From Acidobacteriota bacterium (GTDB lineage: Bacteria; Acidobacteriota; UBA6911), in assembly GCA_963664705.1 (NCBI GenBank), contig OY761556.1, forward strand, positions 3,136,001 to 3,200,000: a DNA stretch of 64,000 nt, in the 5' to 3' direction. A program made the translations under genes and the position numbers. This document shows, in pieces, positions 14,957 through 21,806 of this stretch. Below the pieces are notes generated by a model, which saw only the letters and a program-made list of their open reading frames with translations, was not told the origin of the DNA and made no database searches. Position 1 is the first letter of the stretch; every line of letters starts with the position of its first letter.

Positions 14957-15244
14957 TGCTGCATGATATCTGCTCAAGGACAATGCATATCAGCCCCGAG
15001 GCCTGAAGGGGCGGCAGAATTCCCATCTTTCGCCCTTCATAGAAGGGCTCTTTCTCGCGCTTGTCTATACCAGGGGTTCGCTGCGCTTCACCCCTGGCCA
15101 CTTGCTGATCGCCCTGCCGGGGCTGGTTGCTGGCCTGATCCAATCCGGGCGGTCGCTTTAGCCCTGGGCTACTCTCTTTCGGCCTTCCAGAGCCTGGTGC
15201 CCCACTCGCGCCGCAGGGCTCAGAACAAATATTATGCAGCATTG
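14954..15244. mobile_element. Non-autonomous MITE with IS4-like ends and 11-bp target-site duplication
   Basis: Terminal inverted repeats TAATGCTGCATGATATCTGCTC and (reverse complement) CAATGCTGCATAATATTTGTTC, 18/22 match; flanking GCCGGGACGGC at 14943-14953 and 15245-15255; internal hairpins. Confidence 0.75.
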
Positions 15245-15291
15245 GCCGGGACGGCGGCGCTCCCTTTGTGGACTCGATTCGTTCGGTGGTT

Positions 15292-15735
15292 CTAAAGAGT
15301 GATTCTACCGTCGGAACGAAAAGCCGACTTGATATCCTCCATCAGTTCTTCCGCACTCCTGAATCCCAAAATCCGATCCACTTCACGACCGGAGGAATCC
15401 AGGAGAATCAGCGTGGGAAACCCATCGATCCCATATCGCCGAGCCAACCGGTTTCCCTGGGGATCCGTGTCTTGAAACACTCGGACCAATACATAGCTTT
15501 GTGAAAACTTGATGAACTCCCTATCCGGATAGACCTCACGGGCCATTCTTCGGCACTGCGGTCACCAGCTTGCCGAAATATCCAGGATAATGGACTTCTT
15601 TTCCCTGGCAGCCTGCTTCAGAGCATCGTCGAAATTCTTGACCCAGGCAACCTGAGCAACCGCTACTCCCTGGCACAATACCAGCAGCACGAATACAATC
15701 GAAAGCAACTGTCGGCTCCTGCAAAACGGATGCAT
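15292..15735 (-). CDS. Exported thioredoxin-family protein, probable selenoprotein (UxxC)
   Basis: RBS GGGAGG and ATG 15735; signal peptide; VAWVKNFDDALKQAAREKKSIILDISASW-TGA(15562-15564)-PQCRRM, continuing in frame to YGIDGFPTLILLD. Confidence 0.85.
15520..15561 (-). promoter_or_regulatory. Candidate bacterial SECIS hairpin
   Basis: 21 nt after the UGA a loop CGUGA is closed by AUGGCC/GGUCUAU (bulged U); the region also contains AGGUCU; folded by eye only. Confidence 0.5.
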
Positions 15736-15756
15736 CTTAACCTCCCACCGGCATTT

Positions 15757-17268
15757 CTATTTCGGGTACACCATTGTCAACGGGTCCGGAAGCGGAATAC
15801 GAGTGATCTTGCCTGTTGATATTTTCTGAAACGAATATTCCGGCTTGTCCGGATTGCCTTTGATCATGTCATCGACATTCCCGACCGCCAATATTACAAG
15901 CTTATCAGGATGCAGATACGCATTCGCGACCCTCTGGACATCCGCTATTGTAACAGCCTTCACCTTATCCCGGTATGTATCCCAATAATCAGGAGCACGT
16001 CCCGTGAACTCATCGCGCGCAAAGGTATCGGCTATGGCAGACGCGGATGCAAATAGCCTTGGAAAAACTTCGATCGCCTGATTCTTGACAATCTCCAGTT
16101 CCTCCGCGGAAACCTTTTCGTCGCGGATTTTTCGAATCTCCTCGAGGACAATCTGGGCAGCCTGGGCAGCGGTTGCACTTTTGCTTTGAAACGCGGCGCA
16201 GAATTGGCCTTCATAATAAACGCCGGCCGAATAGGCCGAACCAGCGTCATATGCCAGCCCCTCATCAGAGCGCACGCGGTTCATAATGCGGGAAGAAAAT
16301 CCGGATCCACCCAAAATTTCATTCATCATGTCGATGGCATATTCATCCGGATTGCCTCTCATGATCCCAAGGTGTCCGATCGATACGCGTCCCTGATTGA
16401 CATCCGGTTTGTTCACCATATAGATGCCGGGGACAGGGGTGAAGTCCGGTTTCGGCACTGCCGGCACAGAGCCGTTCGTGTTCGGCCATCCCGCCATGGC
16501 CTTTTCCAGCTTTGCCTTCATCTCGGCGGTTTTAAAATCCCCGGAGACAGCCAGAATCATATTGCCGGGGTGATAGTAGCGCTTGTGAAAGCTGATCAGA
16601 TCCTCCCTGGTCAGCGAAGAGATGGAGTTCTTTGTACTGTATCTGGTTGAGAAGTGCTTTTCTCCGCGAAGCAGGCGATTCCACTCCCGGAACTCAATAT
16701 CTTCGGTTCGATCATTGCGGCGCTCGATGGACTGGAGCACCTGGCTTTTATAAAGATCCAATCGGTCCTGCTGGAATGCAGGGTTTTGAAGCATATCAAA
16801 GAAAAGCGCCAGGGCTTTATCCGCGTCCTTTGCCATAAAGTTGATGGAAGCGTTGCCCGAAGTCGCACTAATGGAACTGGTAATTGTCGCGGCGAGAAAA
16901 TCAGTTTCTTCATCAAAGGCCGCGGCATCATATTTGGCAGTTCCTCCGGATCGCATCTGGTTGGCCGTTGTGGCACTCAGTCCTTCTTTCCCCGCCGGAT
17001 CCAGGTAACTGCCGGTGTGAAACATTACCAATACATTCACCAACGGCAGATCGTGATCTTCCACAAAGTAGCCAACCGCGCCGTTATTGAGCACCTGTCG
17101 AAAGGCGGATGCCTTTGGAGGCGTGTACGGTAAAGAGGGATATTTGAGTTCACGGGGATGGGCAGGGATTGGATTCCGGCGAACTGTCTGGCTGAGGCAG
17201 AGGGAACCGGCGATAAGACAGCAGACGATCAAAATAGAAACACCCTGGATTCTCGTATGCCGATGCAT
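15757..17268 (-). CDS. M16 (pitrilysin) family peptidase, non-catalytic subunit
   Basis: EDHDLPLV, ILGGSGFSSRIMNRVRSDEGLAY (R/Y pair); lacks HXXEH. Confidence 0.9.
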   Translation of the reverse strand: MHRHTRIQGVSILIVCCLIAGSLCLSQTVRRNPIPAHPRELKYPSLPYTPPKASAFRQVLNNGAVGYFVEDHDLPLVNVLVMFHTGSYLDPAGKEGLSATTANQMRSGGTAKYDAAAFDEETDFLAATITSSISATSGNASINFMAKDADKALALFFDMLQNPAFQQDRLDLYKSQVLQSIERRNDRTEDIEFREWNRLLRGEKHFSTRYSTKNSISSLTREDLISFHKRYYHPGNMILAVSGDFKTAEMKAKLEKAMAGWPNTNGSVPAVPKPDFTPVPGIYMVNKPDVNQGRVSIGHLGIMRGNPDEYAIDMMNEILGGSGFSSRIMNRVRSDEGLAYDAGSAYSAGVYYEGQFCAAFQSKSATAAQAAQIVLEEIRKIRDEKVSAEELEIVKNQAIEVFPRLFASASAIADTFARDEFTGRAPDYWDTYRDKVKAVTIADVQRVANAYLHPDKLVILAVGNVDDMIKGNPDKPEYSFQKISTGKITRIPLPDPLTMVYPK

Positions 17269-18992
17269 TATTTCCCTCCGTTCTGAATTTTTGCCTGCAG
17301 CAGTTTGGATAGAGCTTCCACAAAATTCTTCTTGTCGGGAGGTGCGGAGTCCCGCTGCGATTCCAGCTTTTGCAGGATCGCTTTTGCCTCATCCATGGGC
17401 ATCTGAGCCAGCGCCTGCTTAAGCTGACGGACTTGCACTTTTTCCTGTTCACTCAAACCCGTAAGCAGCGGATCCTCTCCTTCGCCGGACTCCGATTTCC
17501 TGGTGTAGTACAACGCCACCGTGCGATTTTCGGGCTTGAAGTACTGATTGGCGACTCGCTGAACGTCTTCTGCAGTAACGGCGGCCAGCTTTGGGGGATC
17601 CTCGTTAAAGCTCTGCCACCCTCGGTTGCTTTCGGCCAGAAGCATCTGCAACATCAGATAAAACCGGCTCTCCAGTTTCCGGTAGTTATCCGCCGCAAAC
17701 TGGTTTTTTACCTTCTGCAGTTCTCTCTCTCCCACCTTTTCTTTTTGAAGCTTTTCGATCTCCCGGTAAAGCGCCTGCTCCACGATTTCGGGAGTGCTCC
17801 CGGGCTTGGCCACTCCTCCGAGCGAAAAATAGCCTTCCCACTTCATTCCATTCTGGCCCGCCGAGGCGCTGTTGGCGATCTTCTGGTCAAGCACGAGAGA
17901 TTTGTACAGCCGTCCGGTTTTTCCATTCAACAAAGCGCCCAGCACAACCAGCGCCGGCTCATTAACATGACCATCCGCCACCGAGTGATATCGGATCTCG
18001 ACTTCCGGATTGGTTTCCGCATACGCGATCATTCGCTTTTCCGCCATCTGCTCTACTTCCCGAGTCCTCACGGGGGGCTGCGGTTGCGGGTTTCGCTTCA
18101 GCCGGCCGAAATATCGATCGGCCAATTGCCGGGCCCGGGCGGGGTCAAAATCCCCGACCAGACAAGCGCTGACGTTATTGGGAGCATAATTCAACGCGAA
18201 GTAATCAAGAGCTTCCTGCCGGGTCAAACCGCTCAGATCGCTGGGCCAACCCACCACAGGCCAGGAATAGGGCGACGATGTCCAGAAAAGCGCGTTAAAC
18301 TGCTCATCAAATTTGCCGGTGGGAGTGCTGTCGGTCCGCATCCGTCTCTCTTCGAATACAACATCCCGCTCGGAGTAGAATTCACGAAAAACGGGATTAA
18401 GCAGTCGGTCGGATTCCATCCAGAACCACAGCTCCAGTTTGTTGGCCGGAACATTTATGAAATAAACGGTGTAATCTTCAGATGTTCCCGCGTTCAGGCT
18501 GCTGGCTCCCGCATTCGTATAAATCCTGTCGAATTCGTTTTGTACGATCAGGCTTTTGCTTTCTTTTTCAATCTTGTCCAATTCCTGCAAAAGCTCATTG
18601 TGACGGGCAGTGCGGTTCTTCGGATCCTGCAGATCCGAAATTTCTCCGAGCCGCAGGCGTTTGATCTGCGCCTGCTCTTCTTTCCGAATCTCGGCCTTTA
18701 CGGAATCCATCTGCGCCATCAGCGCCAGGTCTTTTTGAATATCCCGCGTCCCGATGACATGAGTGCCTTTGAACATCATGTGTTCAAAGAGATGCGACAG
18801 CCCGGTTATCCCCGGACGTTCGTTGACCGAGCCGACCTTCGCCACCCAGCCCGCCGCAATATTGGGATCTCCCTTTTTAGGAATCATCAGCAGCTTCAGC
18901 CCGTTGGGCAGGACGTATTCCTGAACAGAGACCTGCTGCGCCCAAATCACCGGAGACAGAAGAAACACCCAGAGAACAACGAATCGCTTCAT
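17268..18992 (-). CDS. M16 family peptidase, catalytic subunit
   Basis: GLSHLFEHMMFKG (HXXEH), NAGTSEDYTVY, ESDR, EERRMR; start/stop overlap with partner. Confidence 0.93.
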   Translation of the reverse strand: MKRFVVLWVFLLSPVIWAQQVSVQEYVLPNGLKLLMIPKKGDPNIAAGWVAKVGSVNERPGITGLSHLFEHMMFKGTHVIGTRDIQKDLALMAQMDSVKAEIRKEEQAQIKRLRLGEISDLQDPKNRTARHNELLQELDKIEKESKSLIVQNEFDRIYTNAGASSLNAGTSEDYTVYFINVPANKLELWFWMESDRLLNPVFREFYSERDVVFEERRMRTDSTPTGKFDEQFNALFWTSSPYSWPVVGWPSDLSGLTRQEALDYFALNYAPNNVSACLVGDFDPARARQLADRYFGRLKRNPQPQPPVRTREVEQMAEKRMIAYAETNPEVEIRYHSVADGHVNEPALVVLGALLNGKTGRLYKSLVLDQKIANSASAGQNGMKWEGYFSLGGVAKPGSTPEIVEQALYREIEKLQKEKVGERELQKVKNQFAADNYRKLESRFYLMLQMLLAESNRGWQSFNEDPPKLAAVTAEDVQRVANQYFKPENRTVALYYTRKSESGEGEDPLLTGLSEQEKVQVRQLKQALAQMPMDEAKAILQKLESQRDSAPPDKKNFVEALSKLLQAKIQNGGK

Positions 18993-19121: not shown

Positions 19122-21806
19122 TTAGCCGGCAAGAGGATGAAGCGGATCAAGCTTATCCGGATCAATTCCAAGTTCTCTGATAGCGCTGCCCACTTCCGAT
19201 GCAGAAAGCTGGCCATCCTGAAATAGGGCGTGCATGGCTGCAACGGCAATACTCTCCGCATCCACTTCAAAGAAACGGCGCAGTGCTTCGCGCGTGTCGC
19301 TGCGACCGAACCCATCCGTGCCCAGCACGACATAGCGTTGGTCCACCCATGGTCGGATGAAATCCGGAAGTGTCTTCACAAAATCGGTCGCCGCAATGAT
19401 CGGGCCGGAGACACCTTCCAATACCTGCCGGATGTACGGAACCGATGGCTGCGATTCTGGATGAAGCCGGTTCCATCGATCCGCACAGAGGGCCTCGTCG
19501 CGCAGCTGCTGATAGCTTGTCGCGCTCCAGACATCCGCAGAGATCTGGAATTTTTGCGCCAGCAATTCCTGCGCCTGAAGAACGCATTTCATAATGGAAC
19601 CGCTGCCAAAGAGCTGCACGTGATGGTTCAGCTTCTGCGGCGCCGGGCGAAACAGATATAGCCCTTTGATGATCCCTTCCTCGACCCCATCGGGCATAGG
19701 CGGATGATAAATATTTTCGTTATATACCGTGAGGTAGTAAAAAACATCCTCCCCCTTCTGATACATCCGGACAAGGCCGCTTTTTACGATCATGGCAACC
19801 TCGTAGGCAAAAGCCGGATCATAGGAAACGATATTGGGAATTACCGATGCAAGTACCTGGCTGTGGCCATCCTCGTGCTGCAACCCTTCGCCATTCAAAG
19901 TGGTACGTCCCGCTGTGGCGCCAATAGCGAATCCGCGTCCTCGAGCGTCGCCGAATGCCCAGAACAGATCTCCGGTTCTTTGAAATCCGAACATCGAATA
20001 AAAGAGGTAGATAGGAATCATGTACTCGCCGTGCGTGGCATAGCTCGTTCCCGCGGATGTAAAGCTGGCGGCACTGCCGGCTTCCGTGATGCCCTCTTCA
20101 AGGATTTGCCCTTCCTTCGACTCGTTATAGCTGAGGAGCATTCCGGCATCCACGGACTCATACAACTGCCCCACGGAAGAATAAATGCCAAATTCGTGAA
20201 AGAAGGAATCCATGCCGAACGTGCGAGCTTCATCAGGAATAATGGGTACAATGCGCTTCCCAATTTCCTTGTCACGCATCAACAGCCGCAGCAATCGAAC
20301 AAAAGCCATCGTCGTGGATACTTCACGGCTGCTCCCGGTTCCCGTTTTGAATTCATCATAAAGGTCAGGCTTCGGAATCTGGAGCGGCTTGGCGCGCACC
20401 ACCCGCTTGGGGAGAGACCCTCCAAGAGCATGCCTTCTTTCCCGGAGGTACTCGATCTCCGGACTCTTCGGTCCGGGATGATAATAGGGGGCATCCTCCA
20501 ACTGCCTGTCACTGATCGGCAGCTCCAGCAAATTTCGAAAATCGCGCAACTGATCCAGATTCATCTTCTTCAGTTGATGCGTGACATTCTTGCCCAGGAA
20601 TCCTTCTCCGAGAGCCCAACCCTTTACGGTCTTCGCAAGGATAACGGTAGGCGCCCCCTGATTCTCTGTTGCGAGTTTGTAGGCGGAATATAGTTTCCGA
20701 TAATCATGTCCTCCTCGACGGAGGTTTTGCAGATCCTGATCGCTCAAGTTCTCCACGAGTTTCTTGAGACCGGGCTCGGGACCAAAAAAGTGTTCCCGAA
20801 TATAATCCCCTTTGGCCGTTGCATACTTCTGGTAGGCCCCATCCACGGTTTCATTCATTCTTTCCAACAGCAGGCCCTGTTTGTCTTTGCGCAACAGTTC
20901 ATCCCACGCGCGCCCCCAGATGACCTTGATGACATTCCATCCGGCTCCACGAAAAACCATTTCCAGTTCCTGGATGATTTTGCCATTGCCGCGTACCGGG
21001 CCGTCCAATCGCTGCAGATTGCAGTTGATAACGAAAACGAGATTATCGAGTTTCTCCCGCGAAGCCAAAAACAGCGAACCCAGCGCTTCCGGCTCATCGC
21101 ACTCGCCGTCTCCGAGAAAAGCCCAGACACGCGATTGCTCTGTATTGGCAATGCCTCGCGCCTGCACGAAACGATTGAATCGCGCCTGATAGATGGCGGT
21201 CAGCGGTCCCAGTCCCATCGACACCGTTGGGAATTCCCAGAATTCCGGCATCAGGCGAGGATGTGGATACGAGGAAAGCCCGGCGCCGGGAATTGTTTCC
21301 CTGCGAAAATTATCCATCTGCGATTCCGTGATCCGCCCCTCCAGAAAGGCGCGCGCATAAATGCCCGGCGATGCATGCCCCTGGATAAAAATCTGATCCC
21401 CCGCCGTTCCGTTATCCTTCCCACGGAAAAAATGGTTAAATCCAACATCGTATAATCCCGCCGAAGAAGCATAGGTCGAAATGTGGCCGCCGATTCCGTC
21501 GTAGTGCTTGTTTGCCCGCGTCACCATAACCACGGAATTCCACCGCTCCAGCCTGCGGATCCGCTTCTCCAGCTTTTCATCCCCGGGAAAAACCGCCTCC
21601 TGCTCCGGCGGAATGGTATTGATGTAGGGGGTTTGAACCAGTTCCGGAATGCCCACGTTGAGAGAGCGTGCTTTTTGCAAAAGTGTTCGCACCAGATAAC
21701 CGGCACGGCTCGTTCCTCTGTCACGGACTACCGCTTGGAGCGAATCCTGCCATTCCTGCGTTTCGGCCGGATCACCATCGGGCAATTGCTGATTTAGGAT
21801 AATCAA
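19122..21806 (-). CDS. aceE: Pyruvate dehydrogenase E1, homodimeric type
   Basis: DPAETQEW, GGHISTY, QGHASPG, FPTVSMGLG, GDGECDE, NCNLQRLDGP, EEGITEAG; TTG start with GGAGGGGA RBS. Confidence 0.96.
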   Translation of the reverse strand: MIILNQQLPDGDPAETQEWQDSLQAVVRDRGTSRAGYLVRTLLQKARSLNVGIPELVQTPYINTIPPEQEAVFPGDEKLEKRIRRLERWNSVVMVTRANKHYDGIGGHISTYASSAGLYDVGFNHFFRGKDNGTAGDQIFIQGHASPGIYARAFLEGRITESQMDNFRRETIPGAGLSSYPHPRLMPEFWEFPTVSMGLGPLTAIYQARFNRFVQARGIANTEQSRVWAFLGDGECDEPEALGSLFLASREKLDNLVFVINCNLQRLDGPVRGNGKIIQELEMVFRGAGWNVIKVIWGRAWDELLRKDKQGLLLERMNETVDGAYQKYATAKGDYIREHFFGPEPGLKKLVENLSDQDLQNLRRGGHDYRKLYSAYKLATENQGAPTVILAKTVKGWALGEGFLGKNVTHQLKKMNLDQLRDFRNLLELPISDRQLEDAPYYHPGPKSPEIEYLRERRHALGGSLPKRVVRAKPLQIPKPDLYDEFKTGTGSSREVSTTMAFVRLLRLLMRDKEIGKRIVPIIPDEARTFGMDSFFHEFGIYSSVGQLYESVDAGMLLSYNESKEGQILEEGITEAGSAASFTSAGTSYATHGEYMIPIYLFYSMFGFQRTGDLFWAFGDARGRGFAIGATAGRTTLNGEGLQHEDGHSQVLASVIPNIVSYDPAFAYEVAMIVKSGLVRMYQKGEDVFYYLTVYNENIYHPPMPDGVEEGIIKGLYLFRPAPQKLNHHVQLFGSGSIMKCVLQAQELLAQKFQISADVWSATSYQQLRDEALCADRWNRLHPESQPSVPYIRQVLEGVSGPIIAATDFVKTLPDFIRPWVDQRYVVLGTDGFGRSDTREALRRFFEVDAESIAVAAMHALFQDGQLSASEVGSAIRELGIDPDKLDPLHPLAG

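Follow-up and report, generated by a model that had tools for sequence, protein, structure and literature searches.

A minus-strand reading frame at positions 15292..15735 of the window (the whole 64,000-nucleotide stretch of DNA that was analysed) raises the question of whether its single internal TGA codon ends a short protein or specifies selenocysteine (Sec) in a longer one and, if the latter, what the longer protein does. The frame runs from an ATG at 15735 to a TAG at 15294-15292, and its sole internal stop is the TGA at 15564-15562, codon 58. A ribosome-binding site, GGGAGG (15741..15746, minus strand), precedes the ATG with a 5-nt spacer, and start codons occupy matching places in most congeners. 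The sequence-only reading had described the ATG, the ribosome-binding site and the lone TGA in the same way, and had noted that the standard open reading frame list holds only an 84-aa piece; both points were borne out. This piece extends from 15546 to 15292, is present in the protein database (P0002), and contains neither the active site nor the signal peptide.

When the TGA is read through, the gene has 147 codons, with UGA as Sec58 in the active site W57-U58-P59-Q60-C61 (15553..15567, minus strand). Two Pfam domains span the TGA: Thioredoxin_7 (PF13899; residues 30-113, E 5.6e-16), the best Pfam match of the protein, and Thioredoxin_2 (PF13098; residues 42-131, E 8.1e-15; 55.5 bits against a cut-off of 27). 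Among 61 database matches, 54 were fragments beginning just past the active site and the other seven were full-length Cys forms. Recognition of the complete gene corrects this systematic annotation error, in which the fragments miss the active site. On the evidence of the frame, the Pfam matches and the TGA codons of congeners, the locus is almost certainly a real hidden selenoprotein gene that encodes a predicted exported thioredoxin-like protein and is cut short by gene callers. The earlier proposal of a 147-aa Sec thiol oxidoreductase truncated by such programs is supported, its periplasmic location and Sec incorporation being predictions.

We searched 60 related genomes, including 29 congeners, using E<=1e-41 as the ortholog threshold. 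Orthologs were found in 19 of the 29 congeners, and every one carries TGA at the equivalent codon (20/20 with the query); the Pro and Cys of the active site are likewise present in all 20 Sec genes. No ortholog was found at this threshold in the other 10 congeners, and the gene is therefore dispensable. At 10 further loci extracted from outside the genus the codon is TGC or TGT. An alignment of Cys with TGA at codon 58 between conserved flanks, which had been proposed as a check on the sequence-only reading, was thus obtained, with TGA in the 19 congeners and Cys in distant homologs. A search of the phylum (401 genomes) gave matches in 69 at E<=1e-25. Inspection of 30 more loci, some of them already in the earlier set, revealed one with TGA (L162, from another class), one without the first Cys, and Cys in the rest. 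Among the genomes searched, the stand-alone Sec thioredoxin appears to occur in this genus only. A search for related loci in genome contigs gave 15 distant ones with 24-39% identity over long matches, and among protein representatives there were 58,559 matches, with mostly multi-domain proteins on top. Because the pattern used in the metagenome search required Cys, TGA forms could not be found there; one of its 80 loci (L052) was used. A match in relative G052 (E 3.8e-19) was flagged for TGA in the relatives search (flag only), and a flagged TGA in G178 was rejected as the normal stop codon of its gene.

Residues 1-27 (15655..15735, minus strand) form a predicted cleavable signal peptide, recognized by eye and from hydropathy, with a basic n-region, a hydrophobic core and A-V-A before Q28, an A-x-A/Q junction in the query. 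The best 11-residue hydropathy was 3.46 in the query and 1.8-3.4 in the congeners, and a hydrophobic stretch was present in 20/20 Sec genes. A lipoprotein lipobox was considered and rejected, as Cys21 does not fit one and is not conserved. Asp52 (15580..15582, minus strand), six residues before U58, is found in all 20 Sec genes, and we take its position to be that of the buried acid of thioredoxin and DsbD-gamma. Pro107 of G-F-P-T (15415..15417, minus strand) is invariant in 27/27 aligned rows and presumably belongs to the thioredoxin cis-Pro loop. The AlphaFold model, with a pLDDT of 93.4, consists of one thioredoxin domain. It matched the structures of DsbH (TM 0.83), 2lst (0.83), 2kuc (0.81) and DsbD-gamma (about 0.75), the TM values of this group spanning 0.72-0.83. 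Among solved structures the best sequence match was 2kuc, with an E value of 1.3e-16.

The source genome, a single contig of 6.89 Mb that is 98% complete, encodes a full-length DsbD as a separate gene. Searches of this genome found neither DsbB nor VKOR, whereas among 14 control genomes 6 gave DsbB and 3 gave VKOR. As the fold matches, the presence of DsbD and the failure to find DsbB or VKOR all point in the same direction, we consider a periplasmic reductant to be the most likely role. Our preferred reading, to which we assign a probability of roughly 0.6, is that UGA encodes Sec in a predicted exported single-domain thioredoxin, which would reduce disulfides in the periplasm and be recycled by DsbD. 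The signal peptide would very probably be cleaved after A27, with the protein passing to the periplasm. In the catalytic step, which we regard as reasonably probable, the Sec58 selenolate would attack an envelope disulfide or selenenyl-sulfide, Cys61 would resolve the intermediate, and DsbD would re-reduce the Se-S bond.

The same exported selenoprotein might instead isomerise or oxidise disulfides, or supply electrons to a periplasmic enzyme that reduces peroxides or sulfoxides. Structure 2kuc, its closest solved relative in sequence, is titled 'putative disulphide-isomerase', the x-x dipeptide of UxxC varies among the Sec genes (PQ, PY, PH, PM, PA and PV), and many Cys homologs have long C-terminal tails, of the TPR type in P0007, that could bind substrates. 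However, the DsbB or VKOR to which an oxidase would look for re-oxidation was not found in the genome, and the model, a single domain, has no DsbC-type dimerisation domain. The top fold matches are DsbD-gamma and DsbH, and we consider this set of roles rather unlikely.

The reductant proposed here belongs to a recognized kind of selenoprotein. Table 1 of PMC13188914 lists a UxxC class of PF13098 proteins, named 'Thiol:disulfide interchange protein', with one Sec and WP_011366075.1 as exemplar, and the account in PMC1794560 gives a thiol:disulfide interchange selenoprotein class of three members, including Geobacter species. Like the class as tabulated in PMC13188914, the window protein scores over the PF13098 cut-off and has UxxC, one Sec and an in-frame SECIS-like hairpin; it is placed there by domain and motif, the exemplar having been compared by description only. 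Unlike that class, the present lineage comes from one genus, Acidobacteriota by database label (P0058), and has Thioredoxin_7 as its best Pfam match. It is a new lineage of a known selenoprotein kind. A literature search found no title or abstract on this lineage, and supplementary tables of selenoproteome surveys may list it.

The protein shares its fold, the W-x-x-x-C site and the cis-Pro loop with DsbD-gamma, DsbH and the 2kuc and 2lst thioredoxins, whereas it differs from this group in being a stand-alone, predicted exported domain with Sec. No NCBIfam model reaches its cut-off on the Sec thioredoxin, and the lineage is not covered by NCBIfam. The DsbD model (NF001419) gave 54.8 bits against a cut-off of 330, the protein being 147 aa long compared with a three-domain DsbD that includes a transmembrane domain, and the DsbH model (NF043050) gave 53 against 190. 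TsoB (NF045694; E 6e-20) and Trx7/PDZ (NF041199; E 5e-5) are related through the thioredoxin domain, but the scores fell below their cut-offs (70.8 against 805 and 22.4 against 300) and the window protein contains no rhodanese or PDZ domain. The Sec motifs of these two families in Table 1 of PMC13188914 are UxxxxU and CxxU, unlike the UxxC found here.

The flanks of the 20 Sec loci name no substrate. In the source genome two M16 peptidase-family genes (15757..18992, minus strand) end 21 nt before the ATG, and aceE, encoding pyruvate dehydrogenase E1 (19122-21806), lies upstream of the M16 pair. The M16 genes are likely to be co-transcribed with the Sec thioredoxin in this genome, and from the arrangement of the other loci they do not appear to be a conserved partner. 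The gene directly upstream is aceE at 11 of the 20 Sec loci and neither aceE nor M16 at four; functional coupling to M16 peptidases was rejected because an M16 gene adjoins only 5/20. The adjacency of aceE is probably inherited synteny.

Genes of about 600 aa with a UGSC domain are expanded in the source genome (contig G000:C1, for example at 381682, 769201 and 6765277). Model NF041046 gave 31 matches, 27 of them with an in-frame TGA and none over the cut-off of the model, and a local profile recognized 31 UxxC UGSC genes. Every one of 30 genomes of the genus had 7-46 UGSC-like matches, compared with 0-2 for each of 31 genomes from beyond the genus. The Sec thioredoxin could thus be envisaged as a dedicated recycler of these expanded exported UGSC-domain selenoproteins, since both traits are concentrated in the genus and the median number of UGSC matches was 19.5 in genomes with the gene compared to 11.5 in genomes without it. 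However, this difference is gone when expressed per megabase (3.63 versus 3.69, p 0.69), ten congeners with 7-17 UGSC matches are without the Sec-thioredoxin gene, and no UGSC gene was recognized by eye in flanks of approximately 1.5 kb. We consider a dedicated recycler improbable. The same low standing applies to its broader form, in which the genus would run a selenium-based periplasmic redox network and the Sec thioredoxin, converted within the genus from a Cys ancestor, would pass electrons from DsbD to the UGSC proteins, most of whose genes have an in-frame TGA. Conversion would be cheap in such a network because the A-R-E-V helix already encodes a near-SECIS. If true, UGSC, an orphan selenoprotein family, would gain its first redox partner.

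Other candidate selenoproteins on contig G000:C1 are SelD (2046822), a protein disulfide oxidoreductase (TIGR02187; 4261972), a UshA-like protein (NF041198; 2412510), formate dehydrogenase alpha (within 4400076-4402112), a DedA-rhodanese fusion with C-T-U (4666877; below the NF041203 cut-off) and two OS_HP2/DUF1573-like proteins (3616594 and 6757229; below cut-off). Together with the UGSC genes and the Sec thioredoxin, the genome has at least 39 candidate selenoprotein genes. This count is a lower bound because the dicodon scan misses real cases; the downstream half of the Sec thioredoxin scored -1.1. One Acidobacteriota genome is tabulated with three selenoprotein genes in PMC12013277, and the bacterial maxima given in PMC13188914 are 57-63. 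That a single genome combines at least 39 candidates with two Sec-decoding sets may be of wider importance than the Sec thioredoxin itself.

The sequence-only reading had predicted that the genome would encode selA, selB, selC and selD, and selA, selB, selD and tRNA-Sec were each found twice. All copies of the three protein-coding genes scored over curated cut-offs in a profile search, and one selD carries an in-frame TGA itself. Two full-length tRNAs with a TCA anticodon match Rfam tRNA-Sec (70.6 bits, the gathering score being 47) and both end in G-CCA. Two tRNA-Sec genes within one bacterium have been reported before (PMC5330540). selB was present in 58/61 related genomes and in 18/19 TGA-bearing congeners, the exception being a genome that is 71% complete.

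The second Sec-decoding cluster (G000:C1:3072596-3078309), situated approximately 60 kb before the window, consists of selB, selA, selD and tRNA-Sec and lies beside corrinoid/methyltransferase-like genes. Its selD is divergent, of the Cys type, and fused to an AhpD-like domain. As close copies of this selD recur in only 3/29 congeners, the cluster is probably mobile.

ARAGORN made a third TCA call, a degenerate 72-nt tRNA-like element with a TCA loop and a broken acceptor stem (G000:C1:1625651-1625722; Rfam tRNA score 43 bits). It appears to be flanked by a band-7-like gene and an RtcR-like regulator, with RtcA/RtcB-like genes alongside, and may be a tRNA-like RNA that belongs to an RNA-repair locus.

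This third call, together with the patchy distribution of the second cluster and its Cys-type SelD, is what could be cited for an alternative code or a non-canonical tRNA by which UGA would specify Cys or Trp. Such decoding is very improbable, however, as both full-length TCA tRNAs are of the tRNA-Sec type, the third call is degenerate, and TGA is otherwise an ordinary stop that terminates 443 of 1,480 long open reading frames, some of them possibly spurious. Furthermore, most TGA-bearing congeners gave only a single selB match.

The initial view that both halves of the gene are intact agrees with purifying selection on each side of the TGA and no sign of decay: pN was 0.18 and pS 0.78 upstream, and omega was approximately 0.17 downstream. 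The 20 Sec genes, which are related and not independent, have 52-69% protein identity (18 aligned) with synonymous sites near saturation. Contigs of runs X1 and X3 were identical to the window over 15235-15900, both runs being from one sample that is possibly the source of the window, and the contig of run X5 ended just short of the TGA codon. An in-frame ATG six codons past the TGA and the many such fragments in databases notwithstanding, we can virtually discount a nonsense mutation, a sequencing error or the 84-aa piece as the real product, because the identical TGA is retained under selection in 20 species this diverged, with no second stop in the aligned region, and conservation refutes a product that lacks the active site and signal peptide.

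Having considered these alternatives, we turn to the RNA that would allow Sec insertion in the proposed exported selenoprotein. A likely SECIS at 15529..15546 (minus strand), to which the sequence-only reading had not pointed, was recognized from conservation, RNAalifold and a dip in pS. RNAalifold predicted a 4-bp stem, G-R-C-C/G-G-U-C, pairing 15544-15541 with 15535-15532, and a CGUGA loop (15540-15536) that starts 21 nt after the UGA. The lower stem could contain AU/AU pairs around a bulged U. Among 39 conserved degenerate columns, codons +8, +9 and +10 (CGT GAG GTC) were the only ones with a single codon in 20/20 genes, whereas the majority codon averaged 58% in the remaining columns. The pS value over codons +6 to +11 was 0.022, and CGT accounts for 12% of the Arg codons in the long open reading frames of the genome. 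The one variable upper-stem position alternates between A-U and G-U (12/8).

The bacterial SECIS model quoted in PMC13188914 has a loop of 3-9 nt with G in loop positions 1-2, a stem of at least 4 bp and a distance of 16-37 nt from the UGA; with its CGUGA loop, 4-6 bp and 21-nt distance, the hairpin fits this geometry. The quoted model also has a free-energy threshold of -7.5 kcal/mol, and according to the same source some bacterial SECIS elements do not conform to the model. The hairpin is weaker than this threshold, at -3.8 kcal/mol alone (z -0.94) and -4.4 kcal/mol as a consensus. Longer segments reached -14 kcal/mol in a different fold, and none of five segments 3' of the UGA surpassed its shuffled versions in folding energy. 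Two-sided compensatory change was seen in 0/6 pairs, pair counts did not beat the shuffle control, and a strict hairpin pattern applied genome-wide gave 58 matches that were nearly all noise. As energy-based SECIS detection failed, the case for the hairpin rests on conservation.

The CCGTGAG core was found 3' of the UGA in 4/31 UGSC-type genes compared to 23/45,756 in-frame TGAs genome-wide. Where Cys homologs have an R-E-V or R-E-A peptide, the Arg is encoded differently (AGG in L019, CGA in L029 and CGG in L052), although one counter-example, L031 (D-R-E-T), also has CGT GAG. From its conservation, the hairpin is likely to be a SECIS that helps UGA decoding. With near certainty, SelB acting on the CGUGA hairpin would deliver Sec-tRNA at codon 58.

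The Cys relatives bear on how the Sec form arose. Exported Thioredoxin_7 proteins with Cys (P0003-P0005, P0007, L019 and L028-L030) are 40-58% identical to the Sec protein, have a signal peptide and often share the M-A-R-E-V-Y helix. They differ in their active-site codon, which is TGC or TGT wherever a DNA locus was available, and in using mixed codons at the positions that do not vary among the Sec genes; many also have a C-terminal tail of 110-500 residues. Because the Sec genes sit inside this wider Cys family, the direction of change was likely from Cys to Sec, the direction that PMC1794560 reports for most thiol oxidoreductases. The Sec group had a support of 82 in a quick 52-row tree from which six long-branch or motif-less rows had been dropped, but it was unresolved in the 58-row tree, and in a tree of 49 rows, made by removing 17 and adding 8, the Sec rows stayed together in 40% of the bootstrap replicates. 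Thus, the trees give mixed support for a single origin of Sec, while the identical hairpin argues for one.

Three sequences are informative in this respect. P0212, known as protein only, has Cys yet branches within the Sec sequences in the tree (100/97). It reads M-D-R-T-V-Y, having lost the [AT]-R-E-V peptide that the hairpin encodes, and is a probable revertant to Cys. In the Cys homolog L029 a single synonymous change in the Arg codon would turn the stretch at 1663-1701 into the Sec hairpin. This stretch has a folding energy of -7.1 kcal/mol and may be either a forerunner of a SECIS or what is left of one. L162:514, from genome G324 in another class of the phylum, encodes a distant thioredoxin with a signal peptide, a long helical tail and W-U-G-G-C, and its hairpin, GGAC-CGUGAC-GUCC, lies at the same 21-nt distance from the UGA. 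This gene would have arisen by its own Cys-to-Sec conversion or else by an ancient, shared one. L029 and L162 suggest that the helix following the active site may readily come to encode a SECIS. The short, sharply bounded SECIS, the one-base-away L029 and the probable revertant P0212 make this a clean example of Cys-to-Sec conversion, and through L029 and P0212 the origin of bacterial SECIS elements becomes directly testable.

Just 3' of the gene, window positions 15151-15290 contain a dispersed intergenic repeat with 55 blastn matches at E<=1e-4, including itself, and one copy of this repeat shows a weak match to Rfam Acido-Lenti-1 (23 bits, below the gathering score of 37).
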